Shown: positions 5,533 to 64,000 of the stretch, piece after piece
Position numbering within the stretch: position 1 is the stretch's first letter
How the letters are laid out: each line of letters starts with the position of its first letter
IMG/VR virus record: IMGVR_UViG_3300025314_000001
Location: 42,686 to 106,685 of that record
Direction: 5' to 3' (one strand)
DNA length: 64,000 nt
Source of the DNA: a virus
Translations under genes and position numbers: made by a program
Notes under the pieces: generated by a model
Told to the model about the DNA's origin: nothing
Databases searched by the model: none
Seen by the model: the letters and a program-made list of their open reading frames with translations, nothing else

Positions 5533-6036
5533 CTATCTGCCTTTGGGTCCCTTCGGGGCCTGGTCGATCTTGGCGATCTCCGCCTGAAGCTCGGCGAGCT
5601 CTTCGTCTTCGCCGACCACGACCTGGGGCCGCTGTTGCATCATGTTTTGCACGATGGCCGCGGTCTCGGCGGCCGCCGTGACCTTTTCCTTGAGCTCACG
5701 CTTGCGTGCCGTAGCGGGGTCGAGCGCGGGGTGCATCGGCGCCGGCTCGCGGCCGCGCTTCTTGAGCTGCGGGGCGAGTCCAGACTGGATGACGCCGTTC
5801 TTGTCCGTGAACTGGACCGCTTGGTCGTAGATCTTCTCCAAACGGATAGACCCACCTGGTGGTACCACGACATCCTTGTACTTACGGGGCCGTGTCCCTT
5901 CAGCCCACTGCTTTTGCGAAAACTTGTGACCCGCCGCGTCTATCCACAGTCGCAACGTCACGATCTGTTTGGTTGGATTTTCCCAGATGGTGTATTCGTC
6001 CTCATTGACGACTGTCGACATGGTTTCTTGTGGCAT
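5533..6036 (-). CDS. Hypothetical head-module protein
   Basis: ORF in the late operon. Confidence 0.5.
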   Translation of the reverse strand: MPQETMSTVVNEDEYTIWENPTKQIVTLRLWIDAAGHKFSQKQWAEGTRPRKYKDVVVPPGGSIRLEKIYDQAVQFTDKNGVIQSGLAPQLKKRGREPAPMHPALDPATARKRELKEKVTAAAETAAIVQNMMQQRPQVVVGEDEELAELQAEIAKIDQAPKGPKGR

Positions 6037-6094
6037 GAGACTCTTTGACTCCCTGTTCGTTGTGAAGGTGTACCCGAAGCGTTGTTTGCTTCGA

Positions 6095-6631
6095 CTACGG
6101 ATCGATGGGCTCGATATGCGCTCCGGCTAACCCAGCCACCACGTGGGCGTTGAGCTGGACAGCTTCGTCGTTGACCAGCGTGATGAGTGTAGCCGTGTTG
6201 GTGCAGGTCGCTGCCGTGATGGCGTTGACGGTGTCGTTGGTCGCGTGGACTCCCGATGCCGTTCGGTGAGCCGTGTATCCGGTGAGGATCGCGTTGGCCA
6301 GCGTGATGCCGGTCGTGACGTCGGTCGCATCGGCTACTGTGATCGACGCCGAGGCGGTCGTTCCGTGGGGAACTCCGTCGGGTGCGTGCTGGTTGTAGAT
6401 GCCCTTGACGTCGTTGACGAGCGTTACGGCTGTCGCCGCCGTTGTCGCCGCTACGGTGCTACATGCCAGCGCACCCGGCATGGTGGGCTCCATCGGGTCA
6501 TCCACCGAAGCGCGCGAAATGTCGTAGTGGATGTTCGTCGAAACCACTGCTTCGCGCAGCGCATTGAATGCCAGCGCGATCGTCTTGAGCAGCGAGGCCG
6601 GCTCGATGCCTTTTCTGACTTTCAGACTCAT
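6095..6631 (-). CDS. Head decoration/cement-like protein
   Basis: Ala/Thr-rich with internal repeats (TLVN/TLAN...H); directly after the major capsid gene. Confidence 0.5.
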   Translation of the reverse strand: MSLKVRKGIEPASLLKTIALAFNALREAVVSTNIHYDISRASVDDPMEPTMPGALACSTVAATTAATAVTLVNDVKGIYNQHAPDGVPHGTTASASITVADATDVTTGITLANAILTGYTAHRTASGVHATNDTVNAITAATCTNTATLITLVNDEAVQLNAHVVAGLAGAHIEPIDP

Positions 6632-6729
6632 GGTGTTGCTCCAGGTCCAGAGGAATGGAAAGGGGTTGGCCTGGACGGCGCCGCGCCGCAGGGAGTCACC
6701 CCAGCGCGGCGCCCTCCAGAGCGGCTTGG

Positions 6730-7770
6730 CTACTCGGCGATGTCCGCGATGTACCCGAAGGCACCACGGCGCTTCAGACAGAGCGCCACGGTCGCTTCCA
6801 TGACGAACTGCACGTAGCTGCCCAGACGTCCCAGCGGGTAGATCCTGATCGGAATGCTCGACGCGTCGAACACGTTTCCGTCGGCGGTACCCCTAGCCTG
6901 GACGATCTGTTGCATCGTCTGTTCCCCGAAGGGCGCCGGGGGCAGAAACTGCATCTCGCATTGGTCGGGGTTGAAGGCGACCATGTATCCCGCGCTGCAG
7001 TCGATGTCGTCGTCGATTGGACGACCTCTCCAGAACAGGTCCTCGGCTCCGAGGTTCGCAGCTCCGCCCATGCCGGCAACGACGGTCTTCTGGTTGAAGA
7101 GCCCTTCGTACTTGGTCTTCACTCCGGGCGAGCAAAGGAAACGCTTCGGCGTGTTGGCCTGGCCGGCGTGCGTTCTGATTCCCTGGTTCAGCTGGGCGAT
7201 GAGGTCCAGCGTCAGGGGGCGGTCCGTTCCGCCATTGGCCAACACGGTGCTGACCCAGTAGGTCGAATCGGTGATTGCCGCATAGGCGCCAGACGACGCA
7301 ATGGCTCCGCCCAGGAGACCCACGCAGTTCGCGTTCCCTGATCCGTCGGTTCCATCGCCGGTCCACATGTCGGTATTGATGGCCCGAGCGATCGTGGCCG
7401 CACCTTCCATGATACGGTTGGCGAGCTTGTTCCCGATGATCAGGGGGTTACGTTGCCCGGTCGACGCCAAGACATCGAGCTCGGTCGTCGTGAAACCGAA
7501 GGTGTGCCGATAGATGCCCCAGCTCAGATAGGCGTTGTCTTCGACCATCTGCGTCGCGTCGCTGGCAGCCACGGTCGCGCCTTCGGCAACGGTTGCGGCG
7601 GTTGCACCACCGAGCTGGGCAGCCCACGCGGCTCGAGGACCACGGGGAACTCCGGTGGGGGCCGGCACCAACGACAGGAGTTTACACTCCTTGTTCCACG
7701 TGCGGGCGATATCGGGCCCGAACTGATCGACGAGAATTGCCGCAGCAACGGTCAGGGTTTCGACAGCCAT
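6730..7770 (-). CDS. Major capsid protein (HK97 fold)
   Basis: 346 aa after the scaffold gene; VAEGA, MWTGDG, FWRGRPIDDD, C-terminal beta-strands. Confidence 0.8.
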   Translation of the reverse strand: MAVETLTVAAAILVDQFGPDIARTWNKECKLLSLVPAPTGVPRGPRAAWAAQLGGATAATVAEGATVAASDATQMVEDNAYLSWGIYRHTFGFTTTELDVLASTGQRNPLIIGNKLANRIMEGAATIARAINTDMWTGDGTDGSGNANCVGLLGGAIASSGAYAAITDSTYWVSTVLANGGTDRPLTLDLIAQLNQGIRTHAGQANTPKRFLCSPGVKTKYEGLFNQKTVVAGMGGAANLGAEDLFWRGRPIDDDIDCSAGYMVAFNPDQCEMQFLPPAPFGEQTMQQIVQARGTADGNVFDASSIPIRIYPLGRLGSYVQFVMEATVALCLKRRGAFGYIADIAE

Positions 7771-7811
7771 GATGACCTCTTCTGGGCGGATCCCCGCCCT
7801 CTTGGCTGGGC

Positions 7812-8603
7812 CTACTGGCCCAGCAGATTCGCAAACGCGTTACCCACAACCTCTTGCGGGGTGCGCTTTTCACCTGCAGCTGGCGGGAGTCCAGCGCGTT
7901 GTCCCGGCTTCTCGCCGGATCCCGAAGCCCCGACAGGGGGCAGGTACAGTTTCGCCTCTGGCGTCTTGATCCAGGATGAGAGGCCCTGAGTTAACGGGAG
8001 TTCTCCCTTCTCGGGGTCCTTGTAAACGAGCGTTTCTCCGTCTTCGGAGTAACCGATGCGCTTCTTGCCGTCGTAGAGGAACAGCTCCGCCGCTTCGGCG
8101 GCCTCTTCCGCGGTGATGCCGTTCTTGCCGAGTTCCTTGCGGAGGGCTTGCCGCAGGTTGAGCTCGGTCCGGGCTTTCTTCTCGGCGTCGCGCTGTTGCT
8201 CAGCCGACTTGAACTTCGTGTCGAGCTCGGTGCTATGCTTGGTCAGCAAAGCGATCTGCTTCTTGAGCTCGATGACTTGTGGATCGTCGGGCTTCTCGCC
8301 CTGCTTACCCTTGAGCTCCTTGCCCTTCGTTTCGTCCTCTTCGGCTCGCTGGGTCGGCTGAAGTTCGGACCTCAACTTCGCTTCGAACGCATCGAAGGTC
8401 GGCTTCAAGGACTCGCCCACGGCAGACCCAATTCCTGCAGTGAGCTCCTTCTTGAGCCGCGTACCGAGGCCCGTGATCATCTCGGTTTGCTGAACTTGGA
8501 ATCCCTCGAATCGCTTCCCGATGTCGTCGTTCAGCGTCTTGAGGTCATCGGTTCCTAGAACTTCGTGCTCGTTTCCAAACGCATCCTTGATCTTGACGGT
8601 CAT
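7812..8603 (-). CDS. Capsid scaffolding protein
   Basis: Charged coiled-coil with a GASGSG C-terminal tail, upstream of the capsid gene. Confidence 0.7.
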   Translation of the reverse strand: MTVKIKDAFGNEHEVLGTDDLKTLNDDIGKRFEGFQVQQTEMITGLGTRLKKELTAGIGSAVGESLKPTFDAFEAKLRSELQPTQRAEEDETKGKELKGKQGEKPDDPQVIELKKQIALLTKHSTELDTKFKSAEQQRDAEKKARTELNLRQALRKELGKNGITAEEAAEAAELFLYDGKKRIGYSEDGETLVYKDPEKGELPLTQGLSSWIKTPEAKLYLPPVGASGSGEKPGQRAGLPPAAGEKRTPQEVVGNAFANLLGQ

Positions 8604-23685: not shown

Positions 23686-24751
23686 CGATACCTAATCGTT
23701 TGCTGTTATAGATCTGTACACTCAGACCACCAAGGACGACCATGATTATCAGCCGCAAATACGCTCTATTGCTCGCCCGCGCCGGACAAGCCACCATCGA
23801 GGAGTGCTCCACGACGGACGACCGCGGTCGCCGGTGGGTCATCGTCACCCGGCACGACCTGCAGCGCGTGGATCATTTTCGCGCGTGACGCAGGGCGCAA
23901 GCTCTAGCCCCCGCGCCTCAGCAGCCACCCGGTTCGCGACCGGGGCGAGGGTCCGAGCCCACACGGCTCGCCGCACGCGCCTTCAGCGGGCGGTAAATAA
24001 AGACCGACAGGACAAGACCATCATGCACATCATCTTCAAAGTCGACCAGGCCGCCGCGCTCAAAGCCGGCGACGGCCACGACGCCACCCAGTACGGGGTG
24101 GATACCGACGGACAAAGATGTCGCTCGGAGGCTCCGCTCCTGCTCGAGCGTCCCGGGGCGTCGAGGAGACCAGCGAGTACAATGACCAAATACGACGTGA
24201 CCGAGATGCCGACTGAGACTCTCTACGACAGTGACACCAACGACTCCGTGACAGCCGAGGACCTCGGCTGCTCCGATGATGAGTACGCGGCTGCGGTAGC
24301 AGAGTCGCTGGCTGCGTACGGAGAAGGCCACATCCGGGTCAATGGCCGCCGAGTGTACGCGAGCTAACCATGGGCTTCGACACCCTGCTACTACTGTTAC
24401 GTGATACCTACCGCACCGGATATCTGGCTGGCTGGTGCGACGGTACCGGAGGTAGGCTAGCCCATGTGGTCGGCCCAGAGGCAGAGCAGATGCTGGATGG
24501 CATCAGGATGGTACAATGACCAAAACCAAAACCGCGACCACCGTAACCCTCCACGACTCCGATACCGAGCCGGTCACCTACCGAATCATTCTGAGCCCGC
24601 GATACGCGGGCGAACAGTACCGAGTACTCGACGCTGTCGTCGGCCTCGAGGCCGCGTCGGAAGCGGTCGGTCGTCTCGACGCCTTTTATGGGTGGGGTAG
24701 AGTATTCTACCGATCGGCCGAGCAGGCAGTCCCCACACTGCCACCGGTGTC

Positions 24752-25633
24752 GTGGTGCGGCATGTGCCGGTGCTAGAGACGCCACCCCGAAGCGCCTTCC
24801 GGTTTCGAGACGGCGAATTGACGCTAGCGAAGACGACGGCGCCCCTGGACATCAGCTGGAGCCGGCCTCTCCCGAAGGGTGTCGAGCCGACCTCTGCAAC
24901 GGTCAGCCTGGATGCGGCTGGACGCTGGCACGTGTCCCTGCTCTGCGAGGACAGAAGCATCAAGCCGCTGCCCAAGATCAAGACCGCGGTCGGCATCGAC
25001 CTCGGCATCTCGGCTCTTGCCACACTCTCGACCGGGGAGAAGATTCACAACCCTCGCCACTCCGACTCCGAGCAAGCGCGCAAGCGACTGTTCGCCAAGG
25101 CTCTCTCGCGCAAGCAGAAAGGATCCAAGAACAGATTCAAGGCACGGATGAAGCTTGCCCGGATGCACGCTCGCATTGTCGACCGACGTCGCGATGCTCT
25201 TCAGAAACTCTCGACCCGCCTGATTCGCGAAAACCAAGTGATCGTCGTCGAGAGCCTTAACGTCTCCGGGATGGTACGTAACCACTGCCTCGCACGGGTC
25301 ATCAGCGACGCCTCGTGGAGTGCACTGCTGAACATGCTGGCCTACAAGGCTGCCTGGTACGGGCGTCGGCTTGTCCAGGTGGACCGGTTCTTCCCGAGCT
25401 CCAAGACGTGCCATTGCTGCGGCTTCGTGGTCGAAGCGCTCCCGCTCAGCATCCGCGAATGGGCCTGCCCAGTTTGCGGTGTTGTGCACGACCGAGACCA
25501 CAACGCCGCACTGAACCTTCTTGCCGCGGGACACGCGGTATCCCGAGAGGGCAAAGCCTGTGGACCTGGCGTCAGTCGTCGGATTCTCCGGAATCAGGTG
25601 CAGCTGGGGCTGAAGCAGGAACCCGGCGCATGA
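24752..25633 (+). pseudogene. tnpB: IS200/IS605 TnpB, 5'-truncated
   Basis: VGIDLG, VIVVESL, CHCCG..CPVCG, DRDHNAALN are intact, but the protein begins mid-sequence at SAFRFRDG; N-terminal HTH and tnpA are absent. Confidence 0.85.
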
Positions 25634-42580: not shown

Positions 42581-42909
42581 CAGGTCACAACAGACTTACC
42601 GAGAATCATCTCAGGTAGATGCCCAAGACGGACCCGTGAGGAAACGAGCACCAGTGCATCCAGCTTTGCCGATTCAGCGTAGCGGTACAACTGGCGGGCT
42701 AGGGCCGAGAATGAACCACCGATCTTCACCTCGACCCCGATACGGCCAACCATGAAATCGATCCGATCGCGCTGAGACAGCCGTACCTCGCGCACGAATG
42801 GGACGCCCGAGTTATGTAACGCTTGAGCGATCCCATCCTGCAGAACGCGCTCGGTGCTAGTATCAAAACGATACGAACCGAGCAGAAGCACGAGGTCGGC
42901 TGGTGACAT
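42556..42909 (-). CDS. PD-(D/E)XK nuclease-like protein
   Basis: E..LQ, REV, RIDF..IGVEVK, QLYRY. Confidence 0.65.
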   Translation of the reverse strand: MSPADLVLLLGSYRFDTSTERVLQDGIAQALHNSGVPFVREVRLSQRDRIDFMVGRIGVEVKIGGSFSALARQLYRYAESAKLDALVLVSSRVRLGHLPEMILGKSVVTCCLLGSLL

Positions 42910-48544: not shown

Positions 48545-49654
48545 TCAGGCACTTTTCTTCGAGTTTTTGGACCGACCCGTTTTCTCCGACCCAGAATGCG
48601 ACCCAATAACCGCCAGAGCCGCGTTGAAAGACGGGCGGAAATACTTCGAGGTAGTGTGCGGGTCCCGATGCCCGGCCATGTACTGGATCCCCGCCAGCGA
48701 CGCTTGTGGCCGCTCCCCCATGTGTGTCAGAGCCGCGCTCCGAAAGTGCTGGCAGCACAGGCGTCGTTTCATCGGCGGCAGTTCCGCCGCTATGGCGGCC
48801 TGACGGACGTAGGGGTCGAGTCGGTGCGCTCCGAAGATCGGTCCCTGTTTGGGACACACCGAATCGAGTGCCTTGCGGGCGGTATCGCTCAGTGGAATGT
48901 CCCGAGCGAATCCCTCCTTGTCGATCTCCAGTGTGATCCTCAGGACGCTCTGTCCCTTGGAGTAGTGCTCGGGCACGGACAGTTGCTTGATCGTCGCAGG
49001 CCTGAGGGACGTCTCGTGCGCCACGATGGCCCACGATCGAATGGGCCACCCGTCTCGGGTTGAGCGCTCCGGCAGCCTGGCGATCACACGATCCACTTCG
49101 TCCCGTGACAGCTCTGGAGCTCGGACGCGGCGTGGCAACTTGGATTTGTTCCCAAGTAGACTTGACGGTAGCTCGGGGACCTCCGGCATTTCCGGAAGCT
49201 CTCCCTCGGCCACGAGCCAGCGCAGGAACTTGCGTAGCGCCGACCCTTCGTTTCGAACCGCCTTCCCGGTCACCACCTGCAGACGTTCCGTGAGGAGATA
49301 CTTCGCGATCGATGCGTCTGTCAGCTCGGAAACGCGAGCCCATCGTCGGCACCAGCCGAGACCATAGTCCTCGTATCGAACACGAGTAACCTCGCGCCCC
49401 GCGAGCGAACGCACCCATGAGGCTACGCACCCGAGCACCTCCGACTGGGAAACGGCACGACGTTGTTTGCCGTCGGCGCCTTTGCGGACGTGGAGCGCGT
49501 AGATCTCTCGAGCCCTAGTCTCAGCCGCTGCTCTATCTCTGCGGTCTCGGCATCCGGTGGACTCTTGCGTGCGGTGCCCTTCCGTGGTCCACCGGACCTC
49601 CCAGTATCCTTCTTTGCGCCACCTAAGCCGCCAACCCTGTGCTCGTCTACCCAT
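48545..49654 (-). CDS. int: Tyrosine integrase
   Basis: ETSLRP (R), DKEG (K), QHFRS (HxxR variant), AGH, SKY (Y). Confidence 0.88.
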   Translation of the reverse strand: MGRRAQGWRLRWRKEGYWEVRWTTEGHRTQESTGCRDRRDRAAAETRAREIYALHVRKGADGKQRRAVSQSEVLGCVASWVRSLAGREVTRVRYEDYGLGWCRRWARVSELTDASIAKYLLTERLQVVTGKAVRNEGSALRKFLRWLVAEGELPEMPEVPELPSSLLGNKSKLPRRVRAPELSRDEVDRVIARLPERSTRDGWPIRSWAIVAHETSLRPATIKQLSVPEHYSKGQSVLRITLEIDKEGFARDIPLSDTARKALDSVCPKQGPIFGAHRLDPYVRQAAIAAELPPMKRRLCCQHFRSAALTHMGERPQASLAGIQYMAGHRDPHTTSKYFRPSFNAALAVIGSHSGSEKTGRSKNSKKSA

Positions 49655-57110: not shown

Positions 57111-58313
57111 ATGGCCGAAATCAAGCTACCTCCGAGCAAGGGAGAAGATCCGGTTCCGATCGCCTACCTGAGCGACCAACAGCTCGGCTTCTGGGAGAAG
57201 TATCTCGGGGACCAGTTGCGCGACGACCCCGACGGGAAGTGGGCCTCGAGCAACCGGCTCAAGCTGGACACTGTCCAGAAAGAGCGGGCTGCACGCGCCA
57301 ACGGGAAGTCCCAGGCTCCGTCGACTCCGGCGGCCACCAAAGAGGCGCTTCACGAGCGCGTCAAGATTCCGCCGGAGCTCCTCATGCCCATCGAGGACCC
57401 GAAGGATTTCACGGCCCGGATGGCTGAGCTCGACAAGTACGCCAACCTACTGACTAGCGCGACAACGCTCGATACTCTTCCCCCCGGGTGTTCGCTCACT
57501 CTTGGCAAGCTCGACGTCTACGGGGACCCCTCGGACGGCATGGTCTACAAGCAAAAGAAAGACCCCACGGAAGGCGGTCCAGACCGGTTCTCGCTCGGCG
57601 GCGGGGCGCTGAAGAAATTGGCGCTCTTGGCAAACATCAAATATCTGGACCACAAGCCGGAGTTCCTGCCCGGAAATCCAGGTTACCGCGACGAATACGG
57701 GAAGTACCCGTATGGCCCGCCGCACCCGTTCTTCCAGCGCTGGACCTGCCGCGGGACGCGCGAAGAGCTCGACGGTAGCGTGCTCGACAAGACCGAGGAG
57801 AAGACGGTCGACCTACGGGACGGATCCCCCGAAGCGTCGATCCAAAGCGATAAGCAGCTCGCGCGCTCTCGCGTGAACATCGAGCAGGCCACGAAGACCA
57901 AGGCGAAGTACCGACTGGTCCGGGTGCTGCTCGGTCTGAACGACGCCTACACCCAGGTCCAGCTCTCCAAGTCGTTCGTCGTCGTGCGGCTGTACCGGCA
58001 CGGGAACTACGTGACGGGCAACGCGGAATTCGACTCCCAGATCAAGATGCTGAACTACCTCCGGGTGCACCAGGCCAATCTGCTGCTCTTCGGGAAGGGG
58101 CCGACCGAGGCGATTCACGAAGCCTCGAGGCTCCTGGAATCGCAGCTCAAGACGTCGGTGCCGGCGCAGCTACCGGCGGGCAGCCCGAAGCCTGCCGAGA
58201 CCTTCGACCGGGACGGGGTATCGGACCAGACCCAGGGCGCAGAAGAGGATGGGGACGATCCGGACGACGAAATCGACGACATGTCGGACTTCGGCGACAC
58301 CGACAAGGTCTAG
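57111..58313 (+). CDS. Putative ssDNA-annealing/recombination protein
   Basis: ATKTKAKYRLVR resembles SSAP motifs; acidic tail; precedes the exonuclease. Confidence 0.45.
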   Translation: MAEIKLPPSKGEDPVPIAYLSDQQLGFWEKYLGDQLRDDPDGKWASSNRLKLDTVQKERAARANGKSQAPSTPAATKEALHERVKIPPELLMPIEDPKDFTARMAELDKYANLLTSATTLDTLPPGCSLTLGKLDVYGDPSDGMVYKQKKDPTEGGPDRFSLGGGALKKLALLANIKYLDHKPEFLPGNPGYRDEYGKYPYGPPHPFFQRWTCRGTREELDGSVLDKTEEKTVDLRDGSPEASIQSDKQLARSRVNIEQATKTKAKYRLVRVLLGLNDAYTQVQLSKSFVVVRLYRHGNYVTGNAEFDSQIKMLNYLRVHQANLLLFGKGPTEAIHEASRLLESQLKTSVPAQLPAGSPKPAETFDRDGVSDQTQGAEEDGDDPDDEIDDMSDFGDTDKV

Positions 58314-58323
58314 GAGGACACCC

Positions 58324-59004
58324 GTGGCACCACGACTTCGATTGCCGGACGGCGCAGTCGTCCCGGCCGTGACCTCGATCATCAACCGGTTCAAGGACTC
58401 CGGTGCGCTCATCAACTGGGCGTGGCGCGTCGGCAAGGCCGGCGAGGACCTCCGGGGATTCCGGGACCCGGCGGCTGCTTCGGGCAAGATCGCGCACGCT
58501 TTGATCGACGCCCACAACAAGAGCCAGGCCCCCAGGATTCCGACTGCCATGGAGCTCGGAGTAGACCCCGACGTCTATAAGGTTGCCCTCATGCAGGGAC
58601 AGAATGGGTTCGAGGGGTTCAAGGAGTGGGCGTCGGCTGAGGAATTCTCGGTCATCCATAGCGAAATAGCGCTCGTGAGCTCAGAATACCGATTCGGTGG
58701 TGTGCTGGACGCCATCGGACGGTGGCGGGGCCGCCGGGTGGTCGCCGACTGGAAACTCGCGTCCGGGGTGTACCTGGAACACCTGTTGCAGTTAGCGGCC
58801 GAGCGCGTGCTTGCCCAGCAGAAGAAACCCGACGAGCCGCCGGACGTTCTGCTGCTCCAGATCGACAAGGGGACCGGGGAATGTATCCCCCACACCTGGT
58901 CGGTGGAGACCCTGGACGAAGCCTTCGAGATGTTCATGGCGCTTCGCCGGGCCTACAGCTTCGACGCGAAGCTCCAGGGGCTGTGTCGCGAGGTGGCGGC
59001 GTAA
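58324..59004 (+). CDS. PD-(D/E)XK exonuclease (RecB/Cas4-like phage exonuclease)
   Basis: PAVTSII, GKIAH, GGVLD..VADWK, QLAA. Confidence 0.82.
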   Translation: MAPRLRLPDGAVVPAVTSIINRFKDSGALINWAWRVGKAGEDLRGFRDPAAASGKIAHALIDAHNKSQAPRIPTAMELGVDPDVYKVALMQGQNGFEGFKEWASAEEFSVIHSEIALVSSEYRFGGVLDAIGRWRGRRVVADWKLASGVYLEHLLQLAAERVLAQQKKPDEPPDVLLLQIDKGTGECIPHTWSVETLDEAFEMFMALRRAYSFDAKLQGLCREVAA

Positions 59005-59450
59005 CCCTAAAGGCAAACCACCATGCGTATTTACAAGTACCAGTTCAATCCCCAGTTTGGGGAGTTCTCGATTCCTATGCCCAGAGGGGCACGTGTCCTT
59101 GGCGTGCAACTGCAGGCAGACACCCCATGCATCTGGGCGATTGTCGATCATCTCTGCAGGGAGATCCAGCACGGGTTCGTGTCGGTAGGTACCGGTCATG
59201 AACTACCCATGCCGAAGCATTCGGCGTTCGTAGGAACGGTCCAAATGGGTCCGCTGGTCTTTTCACCTGTTCGACCTGGGCGAAAAGTCGGGCTCCACGG
59301 CGTAGCCAAAAGACGTTGCCGGCCTTCTAGCGCTGTCCCGCGAACGTGGTGGGATGGCTCGAGTGAACGCCGGGGGAGGAACGCGGCTCCCTGAACCATG
59401 CGTGGCACCCCGGAGAGACGGGAACCCCACAAACCCAACCCGGAACCTGG

Positions 59451-60299
59451 ATGAAAACTCTATGCTTTTATCACCGCTCGGACCTTGACGGCCACTGCTC
59501 GGGCGCCATCGTGCACCGAGCTCATCCGGACGCCGAGCTCATCGGTATCGACTACGGGGACCCGTTCCCGTGGGACAAGATCGACAAGGAGACCGAGGTC
59601 ATCATGGTCGACTTCAGCATCCAGCCCATCGATGGCATGGTGCGGCTCCAGGAGTCCTGCGAACGGCTCGTGTGGATCGATCACCACGAGTCGGCCATCA
59701 AGGAGTCCGCGAAATACCCGGCGCTCTACATGACGCCCGGTCTCCGGTTGATCGGAAAGGCCGCCTGTGAGCTCGCTTGGGAGTGGTTCTTCGAACGATC
59801 GACAGTTCCGATGTCTGTGTTCCTGTTGGGGCGCTACGACGTTTGGGCGTTGGATGCTCACCCAGACGTCCTGCCCTTCCAGTACGGGATGCGGTCGCTA
59901 AAGAAAACCACCCCTGACTTCTCCCCGCTCTGGGTGGCGTTGTTCTCGGGCGACCCCGACTGCGTACAGCACCTTTGCGAGGTCGGCCGCACAGTGCTTG
60001 ATTTCCAGGACACTCAGGACGCCCAAGCCTGCGCCGGTTGCGCGTTTCCGGCAGAGCTCGCTGGCCTCAAGGTGATCGCGCTTAACCGTTCACTCGTGAA
60101 CTCGCGCTCCTTCAAGAGCGTTTGGGATCCGTCGCTCTACCAGGCCATGTGCGCGTTCGTTCGGCGACCGAACGGTATCTGGTCCGTGTCCCTCTACACG
60201 GACCGGGAAGACGTGGACGTCGGCGAGTTCTGTAAGCGGCACGGCGGTGGAGGGCACCGGAAGGCCGCGGGGTTCCAGATGAAGGCCTGCCCGTTCTGA
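59451..60299 (+). CDS. DHH/DHHA1 phosphoesterase
   Basis: DLDG, VDFS, IDHH, GGGGH.KAAGF. Confidence 0.92.
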   Translation: MKTLCFYHRSDLDGHCSGAIVHRAHPDAELIGIDYGDPFPWDKIDKETEVIMVDFSIQPIDGMVRLQESCERLVWIDHHESAIKESAKYPALYMTPGLRLIGKAACELAWEWFFERSTVPMSVFLLGRYDVWALDAHPDVLPFQYGMRSLKKTTPDFSPLWVALFSGDPDCVQHLCEVGRTVLDFQDTQDAQACAGCAFPAELAGLKVIALNRSLVNSRSFKSVWDPSLYQAMCAFVRRPNGIWSVSLYTDREDVDVGEFCKRHGGGGHRKAAGFQMKACPF

Positions 60300-60709: not shown

Positions 60710-60714
60710 TTCTA

Positions 60715-61190
60715 GGGCGCGCACCTCGTCCTGCGTTGGAAGGCAGAACTCCCCGGCGGCGCACGCCTGGGGGGGAAGGTGCAGCTTTGCTGGCTCAAGG
60801 AAACCAGTACCCGAGGGCGGTGGTGCTCAGCCCCACGCGCCGGAGCGGACAATCCGGACCAGGCCCTGGAGGGCTAACGGTGGTGGCGGCGTGGCCAGAT
60901 GACACGCGCGTGCGAGCCATGCCCGCGGCTGCCGGCTCAACGGAGGTCGGCAGTGCTTGCGTACACCCACGGAAACGGGGTGCTCGTCCGGCCTCTCGTG
61001 TCTCGCTACGGGGCAGGGGTACAAATGCGTTCCGGACGAGTGTTCCGGCTGCACCACCGCCAAGCCCACGTGCTAGTTCACTATGAGGACCGACAGCAAC
61101 AATATCGATTCCTGCTCGTTCAATCAGTGCCAGTAGGCACTACCCCCCGCGACGTTCAGAGCGCCGGTTCGAGTCCGGCGCTCGGGGCAA
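60715..61190 (+). ncRNA. Candidate large structured ncRNA
   Basis: Nested long-range stems and many hairpins; ends in a T-loop hairpin. Strand inferred from the T-loop and GAAA loop. Confidence 0.5.
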
Positions 61191-61233
61191 CAATTATCAC
61201 CAACACAGTTGACATCTAACGACGGAAATACTA

Positions 61234-62961
61234 ATGACACGCACAGTACAACGTTCGAGTCTGGGTCGTCGCAGGAAGGGTGACCTCCACTCACCCAAAG
61301 GCGAGGCCAAGATGCACTCAGCCAAACTTGAGCTCACGCGCTCAAGTCCTCTGCATCCCGGCGACCTGGACTCGAGCGCTGCACCGTCTAAGGGACCCAA
61401 GTCGCTTGGGTCAGCGGATCTTGACCTGGCTCGGGAGTGGCTCACATCAGAACTCCTGTTGCGTGGAGTTCAGAAGCCAGTCGTCTTCCGTGCCCGCAAG
61501 GGCCACGGCGTCGAAGTAAAAGACGGAAAACGCAAGCTTGGGCAGCTCGATAACACTGAGTTGCTTACGCATGATACATCGGCGATCGATGGGTTGTTCC
61601 GAATACGAGGATGCCTCAAGGTTGAGTTGAACCCTGCGGATGCGGCAGAGAGTAGCTGGCTGTTGTTCGGTCTCTCTCGGGCTGTTGTAGCCGGGCAGAG
61701 AGCGGCAGTATTATCGCTGTTCCGTGGTGACAACGGAACAGTCAACGCAGGAACTCACGCATATCGGGTTCTATCCGCGACAGTGACCGATTTCTTGTCG
61801 AAGTCCAAAGATGACCGCGTTCACGGTCTATCCGTGTGCGGAGATGTCATGGCGATGGCCAGCAAATTGGCGGCCGACAAGTTTGCTTTGTGGCAACGTT
61901 CGAACCAAGCCGACCAGTCTCCGCCATGGTTCACATCTATCTCGATGCCAATCAAGGATTCCCGCTATCGGCTTGAGTTGCAGGGCAGAGAACTGTATGT
62001 GACCCTGGGAGTCCAGGGTGCTGTAGAGCGTCGGATCCCTGAGATCCGATTCAAGGCCTACGGTAGGGGGCCATCGGCTTGGGCGGATATCCGGCGACTT
62101 CTCTCTGGTGAGTACGCGCGCGCCGCGGCCCGGCTGGTATGGGACTGCAACAGACGACGTTGGACGCTAAATATCTCCTACTCGCGGGCGCGTCCGGAGC
62201 TGCAGAGCGGGACCGGCGCGATGGCCGTATGCCCCGGCATTGACTCGTTCGTGCGGTGCTACACAGACGATGCCTGGAAAGGTCCACAGGACAACACAGC
62301 GAGCCTGGTAGCGTTCAAGCTTGGGCTTGACGCCCGCAAAGCGAGCCGCGGTCAACACAAGGACTTCCAGGGCCATGGTGCACGCGGCCACGGAGTGAAA
62401 CGGTTCACTCGATTACTGCGGCACTTCTCCGAGTTGGAAACAAACTTTACACGAACCCACATCGAACAGGCAGCGTCTCGCGTCCGGCGCCTCGCCACTG
62501 GGGACCGGCTAGGGAAACATGGCTGGAATGAGACGCGAGGCCCCGTCGGGGAGGTCCTAGTTGCTGATTTCGGTAACTTCTGCCCCACGCACTCGAATGC
62601 TCGGGTGGAGAAGATCCTGCGCCGATATCCAATCTGTACCGCACGCGACAAGATCTGCTGGGCCCTTACCAAGGCAGGAATCCCCCATCGAGTCGTCAAG
62701 CCGACAAACGTTTGCCCTCACTGTGGCAAATCCAAGCTGAAGCACTTTTGCGGTTATGACTGGGTCTGTCCGGAATGCCATCTGGTGGCACCTAGAGACC
62801 TATGGACCGGATGGCAGACATTTGTCGCCGGTGGCGCCAGCTCCCACTACGACCTAATCGAGGTAGGTAAGGCTTTCAAAAAGGCAGCCGAATTCGCGGA
62901 CTCTGTCCGCAGAAAGGCGATCAACCATGGAACCGAAGAAACTGACGAAGCTGCTCAATGA
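61234..62961 (+). CDS. Cas12f/TnpB-family effector, predicted nuclease-dead
   Basis: GEY..ARLVWD..RRWTLNISY (WED), AVCPG (RuvC-I, D>C), RGHGVKR..NF (Cas12f1-like), VLVADF (RuvC-II, E>A), CPHCG/CPEC zinc finger, PRDL (RuvC-III); adjacent CRISPR array. Alternative start at ATG 61312. Confidence 0.8.
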   Translation: MTRTVQRSSLGRRRKGDLHSPKGEAKMHSAKLELTRSSPLHPGDLDSSAAPSKGPKSLGSADLDLAREWLTSELLLRGVQKPVVFRARKGHGVEVKDGKRKLGQLDNTELLTHDTSAIDGLFRIRGCLKVELNPADAAESSWLLFGLSRAVVAGQRAAVLSLFRGDNGTVNAGTHAYRVLSATVTDFLSKSKDDRVHGLSVCGDVMAMASKLAADKFALWQRSNQADQSPPWFTSISMPIKDSRYRLELQGRELYVTLGVQGAVERRIPEIRFKAYGRGPSAWADIRRLLSGEYARAAARLVWDCNRRRWTLNISYSRARPELQSGTGAMAVCPGIDSFVRCYTDDAWKGPQDNTASLVAFKLGLDARKASRGQHKDFQGHGARGHGVKRFTRLLRHFSELETNFTRTHIEQAASRVRRLATGDRLGKHGWNETRGPVGEVLVADFGNFCPTHSNARVEKILRRYPICTARDKICWALTKAGIPHRVVKPTNVCPHCGKSKLKHFCGYDWVCPECHLVAPRDLWTGWQTFVAGGASSHYDLIEVGKAFKKAAEFADSVRRKAINHGTEETDEAAQ

Positions 62962-63658
62962 CGCTGGAATCGTATTTGCGCACTGGACCGACTGGGAACT
63001 AGTCCAACGCGAGCTGGCGAACTTTCGAGTTGCACGGGACAAAGCAGAGTCGAGTTACTGTCTGTTCTTGCACGCGGTCGAAACGCGGTCGGCAGATTGG
63101 CGCTCTGGATTGGACTCCAAAGAACCACAGACGTTCGATCACTGGTTACGGAAGAACGCGCTCCACGAAGACCCGGCGCGCTATCGAGCGATGCTATCGG
63201 TAATCGACGATAATGGCTTGGAATGGGTGCAGCGTGTTGGTCCTCTTGCTGCCGCTACGGTGGCCAAGAACCTTCCTCCCGAACTCCGCTCTGAGGGTTT
63301 TGCACGACTAGCCGATAAGCGTGCGGAGATTGGTCAACCGGTCTCACCCAAGACCGCACCGTCAATCATTCAGTCAATCAAGTCGGCGCATCCCGATGTG
63401 TGCCCTTCAACTCCTAAGCGTCCCGAGATTGCGAAGCTACGCGACAAAGTACACACAGCCCGCGTTCATTCCCATTCGCTGGAGAATGAGTTGCGGGAAG
63501 CGAGAACTGCTATCACCGAGCGCGACCGAACGATCGCCCGACTAGAGATTGAGAATATGGAACTTCGCGAGCGGCTCAGTGCTGCTCAAACAGCCTTAGG
63601 CGCTCGCGCTACGCGCAAACCATCGGAATCGCATACTTCTCCGGCTCCGGCCGAGTAG
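62927..63658 (+). CDS. Unknown CRISPR-adjacent protein with C-terminal coiled coil
   Basis: 243 aa; overlaps the effector by 35 nt; lies between effector and array. Confidence 0.75.
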   Translation: MEPKKLTKLLNDAGIVFAHWTDWELVQRELANFRVARDKAESSYCLFLHAVETRSADWRSGLDSKEPQTFDHWLRKNALHEDPARYRAMLSVIDDNGLEWVQRVGPLAAATVAKNLPPELRSEGFARLADKRAEIGQPVSPKTAPSIIQSIKSAHPDVCPSTPKRPEIAKLRDKVHTARVHSHSLENELREARTAITERDRTIARLEIENMELRERLSAAQTALGARATRKPSESHTSPAPAE

Positions 63659-63755
63659 GCGATAACCCATCGGGTAGTGAAAAAGGACACCCGTGCATGA
63701 CCCGCTCGCAAGTTGCTGCGCAACGCATCAGGATCGTGGAGGTTCTAGCGAGCGG

Positions 63756-64000
63756 GTCGGAACGGAGAACAGGATGCGGAGGCAGTGGAGCTCGATGGGG
63801 CTCCGCCTCCTAGGGAGGACTGGACCGGTCGGAACGGAGAACAGGATGCGGAGGCAGTGGAGCATACCGACCAGCGTGCGCGTGGGTGAGCGGGTCATTG
63901 TCGGAACGGAGAACAGGATGCGGAGGCAGTGGAGCCCACTCGTCGGGCGGCTCGTCGTGCAGGGGTGCTGCAGTCGGAACGGAGAACAGGATGCGGAGGC
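63756..64000 (+). CRISPR. CRISPR array (at least 4 repeats, truncated by the window end)
   Basis: 36-bp repeat GTCGGAACGGAGAACAGGATGCGGAGGCAGTGGAGC at 63756, 63828, 63900 and 63973 (partial); unique spacers of 36, 36 and 37 bp. Orientation inferred. Confidence 0.95.

Follow-up and report, generated by a model that had tools for sequence, protein, structure and literature searches.

We describe here a putative RNA-guided DNA-binding module consisting of a Cas12f-derived effector gene, an overlapping partner (accessory) gene and a CRISPR array, carried by a phage. The module lies at the end of a 64,000-nt stretch of DNA, referred to below as the window, which corresponds to positions 42,686 to 106,685 of the IMG/VR virus record IMGVR_UViG_3300025314_000001 (G000:C1:42686-106685; the whole record has 106,685 bp). 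Two of the three RuvC catalytic residues of the effector have been lost, and in several phage contigs the effector and its partner, both under purifying selection, have been passed on jointly with an array. On balance, we consider it probable that this is a phage-borne type V module of three conserved parts, whose effector and partner bind foreign DNA without cleaving it.

The effector and its family

The first-pass annotation of the window, made from the letters alone, reported a type V, Cas12f-like protein of about 550-575 amino acids (aa) with a GHG helix motif and a CxxC/CxxC zinc finger, in which RuvC-I (A-V-C-P-G) and RuvC-II (V-L-V-A-D) appeared to be lost and the Asp of a PRD motif to be kept. 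The present analysis bears out this description in each of its parts. The open reading frame (ORF) encodes 575 aa, and searches with this single sequence gave weak matches (Pfam Cas12f1-like_TNB at 1e-3, below the cut-off; PADLOC Cas12u3 at 3.6e-5; AsCas12f at 2e-3), the Cas12u3 and Cas12f models being the only ones matched in PADLOC. Searching 1.84 billion representatives exhaustively with HMMER yielded 132 relatives, of which 61 had E<1e-10; the 10 whose cluster records were looked up all came from metagenome assemblies, and none had an informative name. A family profile built from 50 sequences matched AsCas12f over its full length (E 2e-57), the sigmaE-type dCas12f (9n9c) at E 4e-9, and Cas12m in the C-terminus only (E 1.6e-9 to 2.5e-4).

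The AlphaFold2 (AF2) model of the effector (predicted local distance difference test, pLDDT, 87.4; predicted template modelling score, pTM, 0.79) had AsCas12f structures as its top Foldseek matches without exception (8j12: E 1.4e-21, TMt 0.70), and its TM value to the Cas12m structure 8hhl was 0.36. Profile and model together confirm the effector as a Cas12f derivative with a predicted WED-REC-RuvC-TNB fold. Of the groups with which the first-pass annotation proposed a comparison (Cas12f1, Cas12m, Cas12k, TldR and TnpB), it is the Cas12f1 branch to which these searches assign it.

Several short motifs are conserved. Throughout the family, neither the helix motif G.GARGHG..R nor the zinc finger (C494/C497/C512/C515) varies. 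The N-terminal tail (residues 1-55) is disordered and carries the conserved motif KGDLHSPKGEAK.HSA; in the form KG.L.SP.GE.K..SA (residues 14-32) this motif is kept in the effectors of the inner and R-E-D clades described below. Among the 131 HMMER hits checked, 26 have a C-terminus of the [AP]-[AT]-[EQ] type. It is also found in the query and in the three homologues closest to it (which are outside those 131), and five accessory copies out of the six examined share it. The frequency of this tail is far above chance, and we know of no reader of such a C-terminus.

Erosion of the RuvC site

In the alignment with AsCas12f, the catalytic triad of the effector reads C333/A444/D522 (Table 1), and the protein appears to be catalytically dead. 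Its three closest homologues (78, 56 and 56% identity) share C-P-G at motif I and have A, S or N at motif II. Within the inner clade of 12 members, position I is C/V/L/I/M, position II A/S/N/V/H/D and position III D/G/V/T/L, with no conserved acidic residue at positions I or II.

A FastTree phylogeny that covers about 110 full-length relatives and is rooted on the five most distant hits with canonical G-V-D-L-G, E and D, contains a monophyletic superfamily without the RuvC-I Asp (support 0.94). Its members, mostly phage- and metagenome-borne, have R, H, N or K at position I and mostly keep the E and D; the fully eroded clade of the query is nested inside an R-E-D group (supports 0.98 and 0.96). 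Cas12m shows a comparable gradual inactivation in its clades HEK, HDD, NED and DED, which also include H or N at RuvC-I (PMC10442227). As read from the sequences, the stepwise erosion seen here mirrors that of Cas12m, but it took place on the Cas12f1 branch; a profile of H-E-D members alone hits AsCas12f at 1e-44 and Cas12m at just 1.4e-4.

It is very unlikely that the effector is still a nuclease, acting through a rearranged active site or a cutting partner, or that it is a non-functional relic. Rearranged yet active RuvC sites are known in TnpB, and the closest homologues keep both D522 and D445. However, no acid is conserved at positions I and II across the clade, position III drifts as well, and the partner is purely helical. 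The first-pass annotation had itself raised two objections to its reading, namely that the D of 'PGID' might substitute for the lost residue and that this copy might be decaying. Neither holds: D337 is not conserved within the inner clade, and a decaying pseudogene is ruled out, because the substitutions are shared by homologues at 56-78% identity and the effector is under purifying selection (dN/dS, the ratio of nonsynonymous to synonymous substitution, about 0.16 against the homologue in locus L009). The corresponding ratio for the accessory gene is about 0.10; these values are approximate, since dS is near saturation (in the comparison of the window with L009, synonymous positions in the flanking genes have reached saturation, pS 0.72). 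A relic is also at odds with the intact array of 22 spacers.

The partner gene and conservation of the module

The gene of unrecognized function that was reported to overlap the effector does so by 35 nt and encodes a protein of 243 aa, which is the most original element of the system. Its AF2 model (pLDDT 83) shows an all-helical N-domain (residues 1-155) followed by a leucine-zipper-like helix of 64 residues (166-229). Sequence searches matched only leucine-zipper and coiled-coil families, the VIA-wide structure list is likewise dominated by coiled coils, and the model has no Foldseek match at E<=0.001 in PDB or BFVD. Neither an enzymatic or sigma-like domain nor a Pfam match to a helix-turn-helix (HTH) was found in it. 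ParB-DBD and DUF3102 rows recur weakly (VIA Z 6.8 at a root-mean-square deviation of 7.7; Atlas 0.92); the DUF3102 lead from Atlas is unsupported by Pfam. The predicted complex of effector and accessory protein scored 0.00 and gave no verdict, and is counted neither for nor against binding.

Accessory homologues are confined to contigs that carry effector homologues, and an accessory gene accompanies the effector in every close locus. Effector, overlapping accessory gene and array occur together in the genome of the window (G000), in L009 and in L013. In L009 too the accessory gene overlaps the effector stop, and an array of three repeats comes after it. L013, a viral contig of 44 kb, encodes an effector of the R-E-D clade (P0023, 29% identity), an overlapping ORF of 211 aa that is homologous to the accessory gene (hhalign 92.9%, E 3.7e-7, 173 columns) and an array of seven repeats. 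In a 392-kb phage contig (L015, IMGVR_UViG_3300029893_000001, positions 5992-7968) an effector of the H-E-D clade precedes a five-repeat array, whose repeat begins with GTCG.AAC and includes GGATGC, as does the repeat of the window; an ORF overlapping the start of this effector partially matches the accessory N-domain (75%, E 2.5e-5).

The strict co-occurrence and translational coupling of the partner are also what would be expected of a recruitment device, in which the dead effector provides the address and the partner, or a host factor bound to the N-terminal motif or to the A-A-E tails, contributes the activity. This might, on the model of dCas12f-sigmaE and Cas12k, consist in activating transcription, recruiting a nuclease or controlling replication. 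Such a device is the main rival of simple binding, and we regard it as possible but rather doubtful. It is in keeping with the N-tail motif of the inner and R-E-D clade effectors, with the [AP]-[AT]-[EQ] C-termini on effectors and accessory copies, and with the fact that other dead type V and TnpB derivatives act via partners (PMC13472631). Against it stands the partner itself, in which no enzymatic or sigma-like domain was recognized and whose weak ParB- and DUF3102-like hints favour DNA binding over catalysis.

The CRISPR array, its leader and its spacers

The identical repeats and distinct spacers noticed at the end of the window are indeed the beginning of an array, and its extension beyond position 64,000, across the contig junction, enlarges it without adding cas1, cas2 or cas4. 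In full, the array has 22 spacers, 34-39 nt long, and 22 repeats of 36 nt that are identical to one another; it ends in a truncated repeat. Its variable spacer length, unique spacers and truncated last repeat argue for genuine spacer acquisition. The only spacers that are alike are 11 and 19 (identical 37-mers at G000:C1:592-628 and 1176-1212), which points to duplication within the array or to acquisition of the same spacer twice. In a 14.6-kb contig of sequencing run X2 the first repeat (window 63756-63846) is joined directly to the last spacer, and after it come the truncated repeat and the downstream gene. This contig is either a collapsed assembly or a one-spacer variant.

Between the window and L009, the final 57 nt of the leader (63699-63755 in the window) show about 85% identity. 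They also hold a degenerate version of the 3' half of the repeat (AGGATCGTGGAGGTTCTAGC), framed by CCGCTCGC...GCGAGCGG. As this identity persists although the synonymous sites of the flanking genes are saturated, the leader is most probably functional. The 3' 24 nt of the repeat are conserved between the window and L009, its 5' part being different, which fits + strand transcription and a type V CRISPR RNA (crRNA) whose handle is the retained 3' end of the repeat.

The size and heterogeneity of the array bear on the view that the guides control host or phage genes (defence, or a lysogeny switch), as proposed for TldR and for the array-linked dCas12f of Bacteroidota. We consider such a regulatory role unlikely. 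The nuclease is dead, a small HTH gene lies directly upstream of the effector in L009 and L010, and the integrase and the candidate attachment site described below suggest a temperate lifestyle, all of which would suit a regulator. Known regulators, however, have one or few fixed guides, whereas the 22 spacers here are diverse, variable in length and without a match in the phage itself, and the arrays of relatives have no spacers in common with this array. The diversity of the spacers makes a TldR-like role in particular less likely.

Proposed mode of action

The 22 heterogeneous spacers point to foreign targets, and the mode of action that we favour is the following. The array would be transcribed from the conserved leader on the + strand, and the crRNAs would retain the conserved 3' half of the repeat as their handle. 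The effector, probably together with a dimeric partner, would then bind complementary DNA, and the bound complex would block transcription or replication without cutting, in the manner of Cas12m. The targets would be foreign DNA, most likely rival phages or integrative elements of the same host. New spacers would be gained in trans, because the genome lacks cas1, cas2 and cas4. We infer RNA-guided binding without cleavage by analogy with Cas12m2, whose non-canonical triad goes with silencing through strong binding (PMC10442227); Cas12m is also described in a second report (PMC11013384) as acting by DNA binding without cleavage. The function suggested in the first-pass annotation, programmable DNA binding for silencing or recruitment, would be compatible with this scheme.

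Several observations weigh against binding of foreign DNA by such a complex. None of the 22 spacers matched the genome of the phage itself, that of the related phage G001, or any of 50,697 cultured phages and 72,556 plasmids, so that the search for targets called for in the first-pass annotation was unsuccessful; two scans of IMG/VR gave no exact match for spacer 1 or for spacer 11/19. No hairpin is formed by the repeat on either strand. BLAST and RNAduplex scans revealed no anti-repeat or trans-activating CRISPR RNA (tracrRNA) above background, although short interrupted duplexes of the Cas12f type could escape them. The N-domain of the accessory protein has no significant structural or sequence match, and the loss of catalysis by the effector is read from alignment and not from coordinates or assays.

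A more far-reaching version is a new, mainly phage-borne type V subtype whose RNA-guided complex would always consist of two proteins, the dead Cas12f and the coiled-coil partner. The partner, in place of a nuclease site, would provide the output, and the array would be filled via Cas1-Cas2 of the host. We put this forward only tentatively, as a possibility. The partner might in that case serve as a dimeric clamp or roadblock, or might recruit host machinery via the N-terminal motif and the A-A-E tails.

Relationship to known systems

AsCas12f (type V-F1, PDB 7wju/8j12) is the closest relative of the effector by both profile and predicted structure, and the two proteins share the GHG..R helix and the zinc finger, while both loci have an adjacent array with repeats of 36 nt. 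AsCas12f is, however, an active D-E-D nuclease of 422 aa that uses a tracrRNA, whereas the effector described here is a C/A/D protein of 575 aa with an N-terminal tail of about 60 aa and further insertions, no tracrRNA has been found for it, and its locus adds a dedicated partner and is without adaptation genes. V-F1 loci usually carry cas1, cas2 and cas4.

Cas12m (type V-M; Cas12m2, HDD) resembles the present system in its compact effector, its non-canonical or eroding triad, its location on mobile elements without an adaptation module, and its interference by tight binding (PMC10442227), which is the mode proposed here. Membership of Cas12m was nevertheless rejected, because its matches are weak and limited to the C-terminus. 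The papers on Cas12m that were consulted describe no partner protein, and the repeat of the window differs in having no hairpin.

The sigmaE-linked and array-linked dCas12f proteins of Bacteroidota are of about 365 aa, C-terminally truncated and devoid of RuvC-III; they are linked to rpoE or HTH genes and use single scaffold guide RNAs (PMC13472631, Hoffmann et al.). The effector of the window has, in contrast, a full-length C-terminus, the zinc finger, D522 and an array of 22 spacers, and the operonic rpoE (an extracytoplasmic function sigma factor with a C-terminal domain) that characterizes dCas12f-sigmaE is missing, there being no Sigma70_r2 in the genome. The two would be independent nuclease-dead derivatives of Cas12f, both combining RNA-guided binding with a partner (in our case as proposed above). 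TldR is derived from TnpB, has a fixed guide of the omega-RNA type, lacks an array and is linked to genes of the fliC/oppF type, whereas here we find an array, kinship with Cas12f and neighbouring recombination genes. As for the CRISPR-associated transposons with Cas12k (type V-K), no Tn7-like tnsB, tnsC or tniQ was found among the immediate neighbours of the effector, the rest of the genome not having been searched for Tns genes.

The superfamily without the RuvC-I Asp may be identical with V-U24 of Altae-Tran et al. (2023; PMC10691335), with which it was compared by description only. In its description V-U24 is given a non-canonical RuvC-I, as found here (C in the query, R/H/N/K across the superfamily), and an associated HTH-domain protein; the partner described here is all-helical, with weak ParB-DBD and DUF3102 leads and no Pfam HTH match. 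The same description mentions neither a fully eroded inner clade nor a location in phages. No experimental characterization of V-U24 was found, and no other paper in the searched literature takes it up. The statement of the first-pass annotation that this gene combination was unrecognized therefore stands insofar as we found no matching description, in particular of a Cas12f in phages whose RuvC site is fully eroded and which is accompanied by a conserved coiled-coil protein, but has to be qualified by the possible identity with V-U24.

An effector and an array without cas1 and cas2 are also found in the type V systems of phages (Cas12j/CasPhi, Cas-lambda, Cas12r of Lalka phages, Cas12p-TrxA and MvCas12m of a myxophage), and such modules are thought to act against competing mobile elements. 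Cas12r gives interference, Cas12p is described as a nuclease and MvCas12m keeps D-E-D, whereas the effector described here is predicted to be dead and has its own conserved accessory protein. Identity with CasPhi was rejected in spite of the repeat start GTCGGAACG, common to both, the match of the family profile being only 5e-4.

Genomic context

The ends of the record overlap by 76 bp; the shared sequence runs from the tail of one repeat through a unique 37-nt spacer into the head of the following one. Because it contains a unique spacer, the closure into a circular contig is genuine and not an artefact of the repeats; the junction of the array with the contig start is also present in one contig of the independent soil run X2. 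The genome of about 107 kb encodes TerL, a DnaB-like helicase, an SNF2 helicase, a tyrosine integrase and a short TnpB, and small phage genes follow the array on its 3' side. The nearest matches of TerL (26-37% identity; best full-length match 31.5%) come from very different, unrelated hosts, and the phage is novel. It was detected in soil and wetland metagenomes (sequencing runs; DNA contigs). Among 185,579 species genomes, no relative of the protein P0014 and, in the search for a host, no match to the conserved 24-nt half of the repeat was found.

Table 1. Positions, in the window, of the module and of the features around it
Feature	Position	Strand	Remarks
Comparator TnpB	24701-25633	+	D-E-D and zinc finger intact; open frame of 293-310 aa, about 95 residues before RuvC-I
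Tyrosine integrase	48545-49654	-	11.6 kb from effector cassette
Phage recombination-like module	57111-60299	+	400-aa protein without assignment, PD-(D/E)XK exonuclease (phrog_298), DHH/DHHA1 phosphoesterase (phrog_4771)
Non-coding stretch	60710-61233	+	About 520 nt; no ORF with homologues
tRNA 3'-half-like element	~61150-61189		At end of the non-coding stretch; T-arm (GCCGG/TTCGAGT/CCGGC) and acceptor strand, as read from the sequence
Effector gene	61234-62961	+	575 aa; Cas12f1 branch
N-tail motif	61273-61329	+	Residues 14-32 of the effector
RuvC-I position, C333	62230-62232	+	Asp of M-G-I-D-L-G in AsCas12f aligns with M-A-V-C-P-G
RuvC-II position, A444	62563-62565	+	Glu of M-E-D-L in AsCas12f aligns with A in V-L-V-A-D
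Zinc finger	62713-62778	+	CxxC...CxxC
RuvC-III position, D522	62797-62799	+	Asp retained, in P-R-D
Accessory gene	62927-63658	+	243 aa; overlaps effector stop by 35 nt
Effector C-terminal tail	62947-62958	+	[AP]-[AT]-[EQ] type
Accessory C-terminal tail	63647-63655	+	P-A-E
Leader	63659-63755	+	97 nt
CRISPR array, start	63756-64000	+	First 3.8 units; runs on across the contig junction to G000:C1:1-1447

The absence of cas1/cas2, transposase and sigma factor genes next to the module, noted from the window, was confirmed for the Tns genes among its neighbours and extended for the others, since six-frame hidden Markov model searches found no Cas1, Cas2, Cas4 or Sigma70_r2 in the entire 106,685-bp genome; the genes of the recombination-like module are not Cas4 by Pfam. 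The TnpB of the window, to which the first-pass annotation had turned as an intact comparator (at 24752), does possess D-E-D, but its frame is short. The typical length of TnpB is about 400 aa, and by this measure we judge the protein to be N-terminally truncated or frameshifted.

The non-coding stretch upstream of the effector contains no full tRNA (ARAGORN) and no Rfam match, has a fold z-score of only -1.0 and is not conserved in L009 or L010. In these two loci a small HTH-like ORF of about 50 aa (L009:9815-9970 and L010:503-685; 44% mutual identity) directly precedes the effector, whereas the window has the 520 nt of non-coding DNA in its place. The element resembling the 3' half of a tRNA is a plausible candidate for the core of a phage attachment site (attP) used by the tyrosine integrase, and integrase and candidate attP suggest that the phage is temperate.

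As the effector cassette begins only about 45 nt downstream of this element, an RNA-guided selection of sites for integration or homing, together with the phage tyrosine recombinase or beside attP, has also to be considered. Repeated links between inactivated TnpB and tyrosine recombinases, reported by Altae-Tran et al. (2023; PMC10691335), and the targeting by Cas12r of phage Lalka of rivals that use tRNA attachment sites would lend it some plausibility. The integrase is, however, distant and on the opposite strand (Table 1), and no recombinase lies beside the module in L009, L010 or L013, so we hold this role to be highly improbable.

Conclusions

Dead type V effectors have each revealed a new use of RNA-guided binding: transposition in Cas12k, silencing in Cas12m, repression in TldR and activation in dCas12f-sigmaE. 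In the system described here, Cas12f appears to have been inactivated independently, in a lineage carried by phages, and is accompanied by a private partner of unassigned fold and by a large array that seems to have been acquired and not to be fixed. If the proposed mode of action is true, the phage would fight rival mobile elements, or manipulate its host, without cutting DNA, and the effector would represent a compact, naturally dead DNA binder of Cas12f size, provided with a natural adaptor protein. Moreover, the succession from D-E-D through R/H-E-D to fully degenerate sites offers a natural series for studying how a RuvC site is retired.

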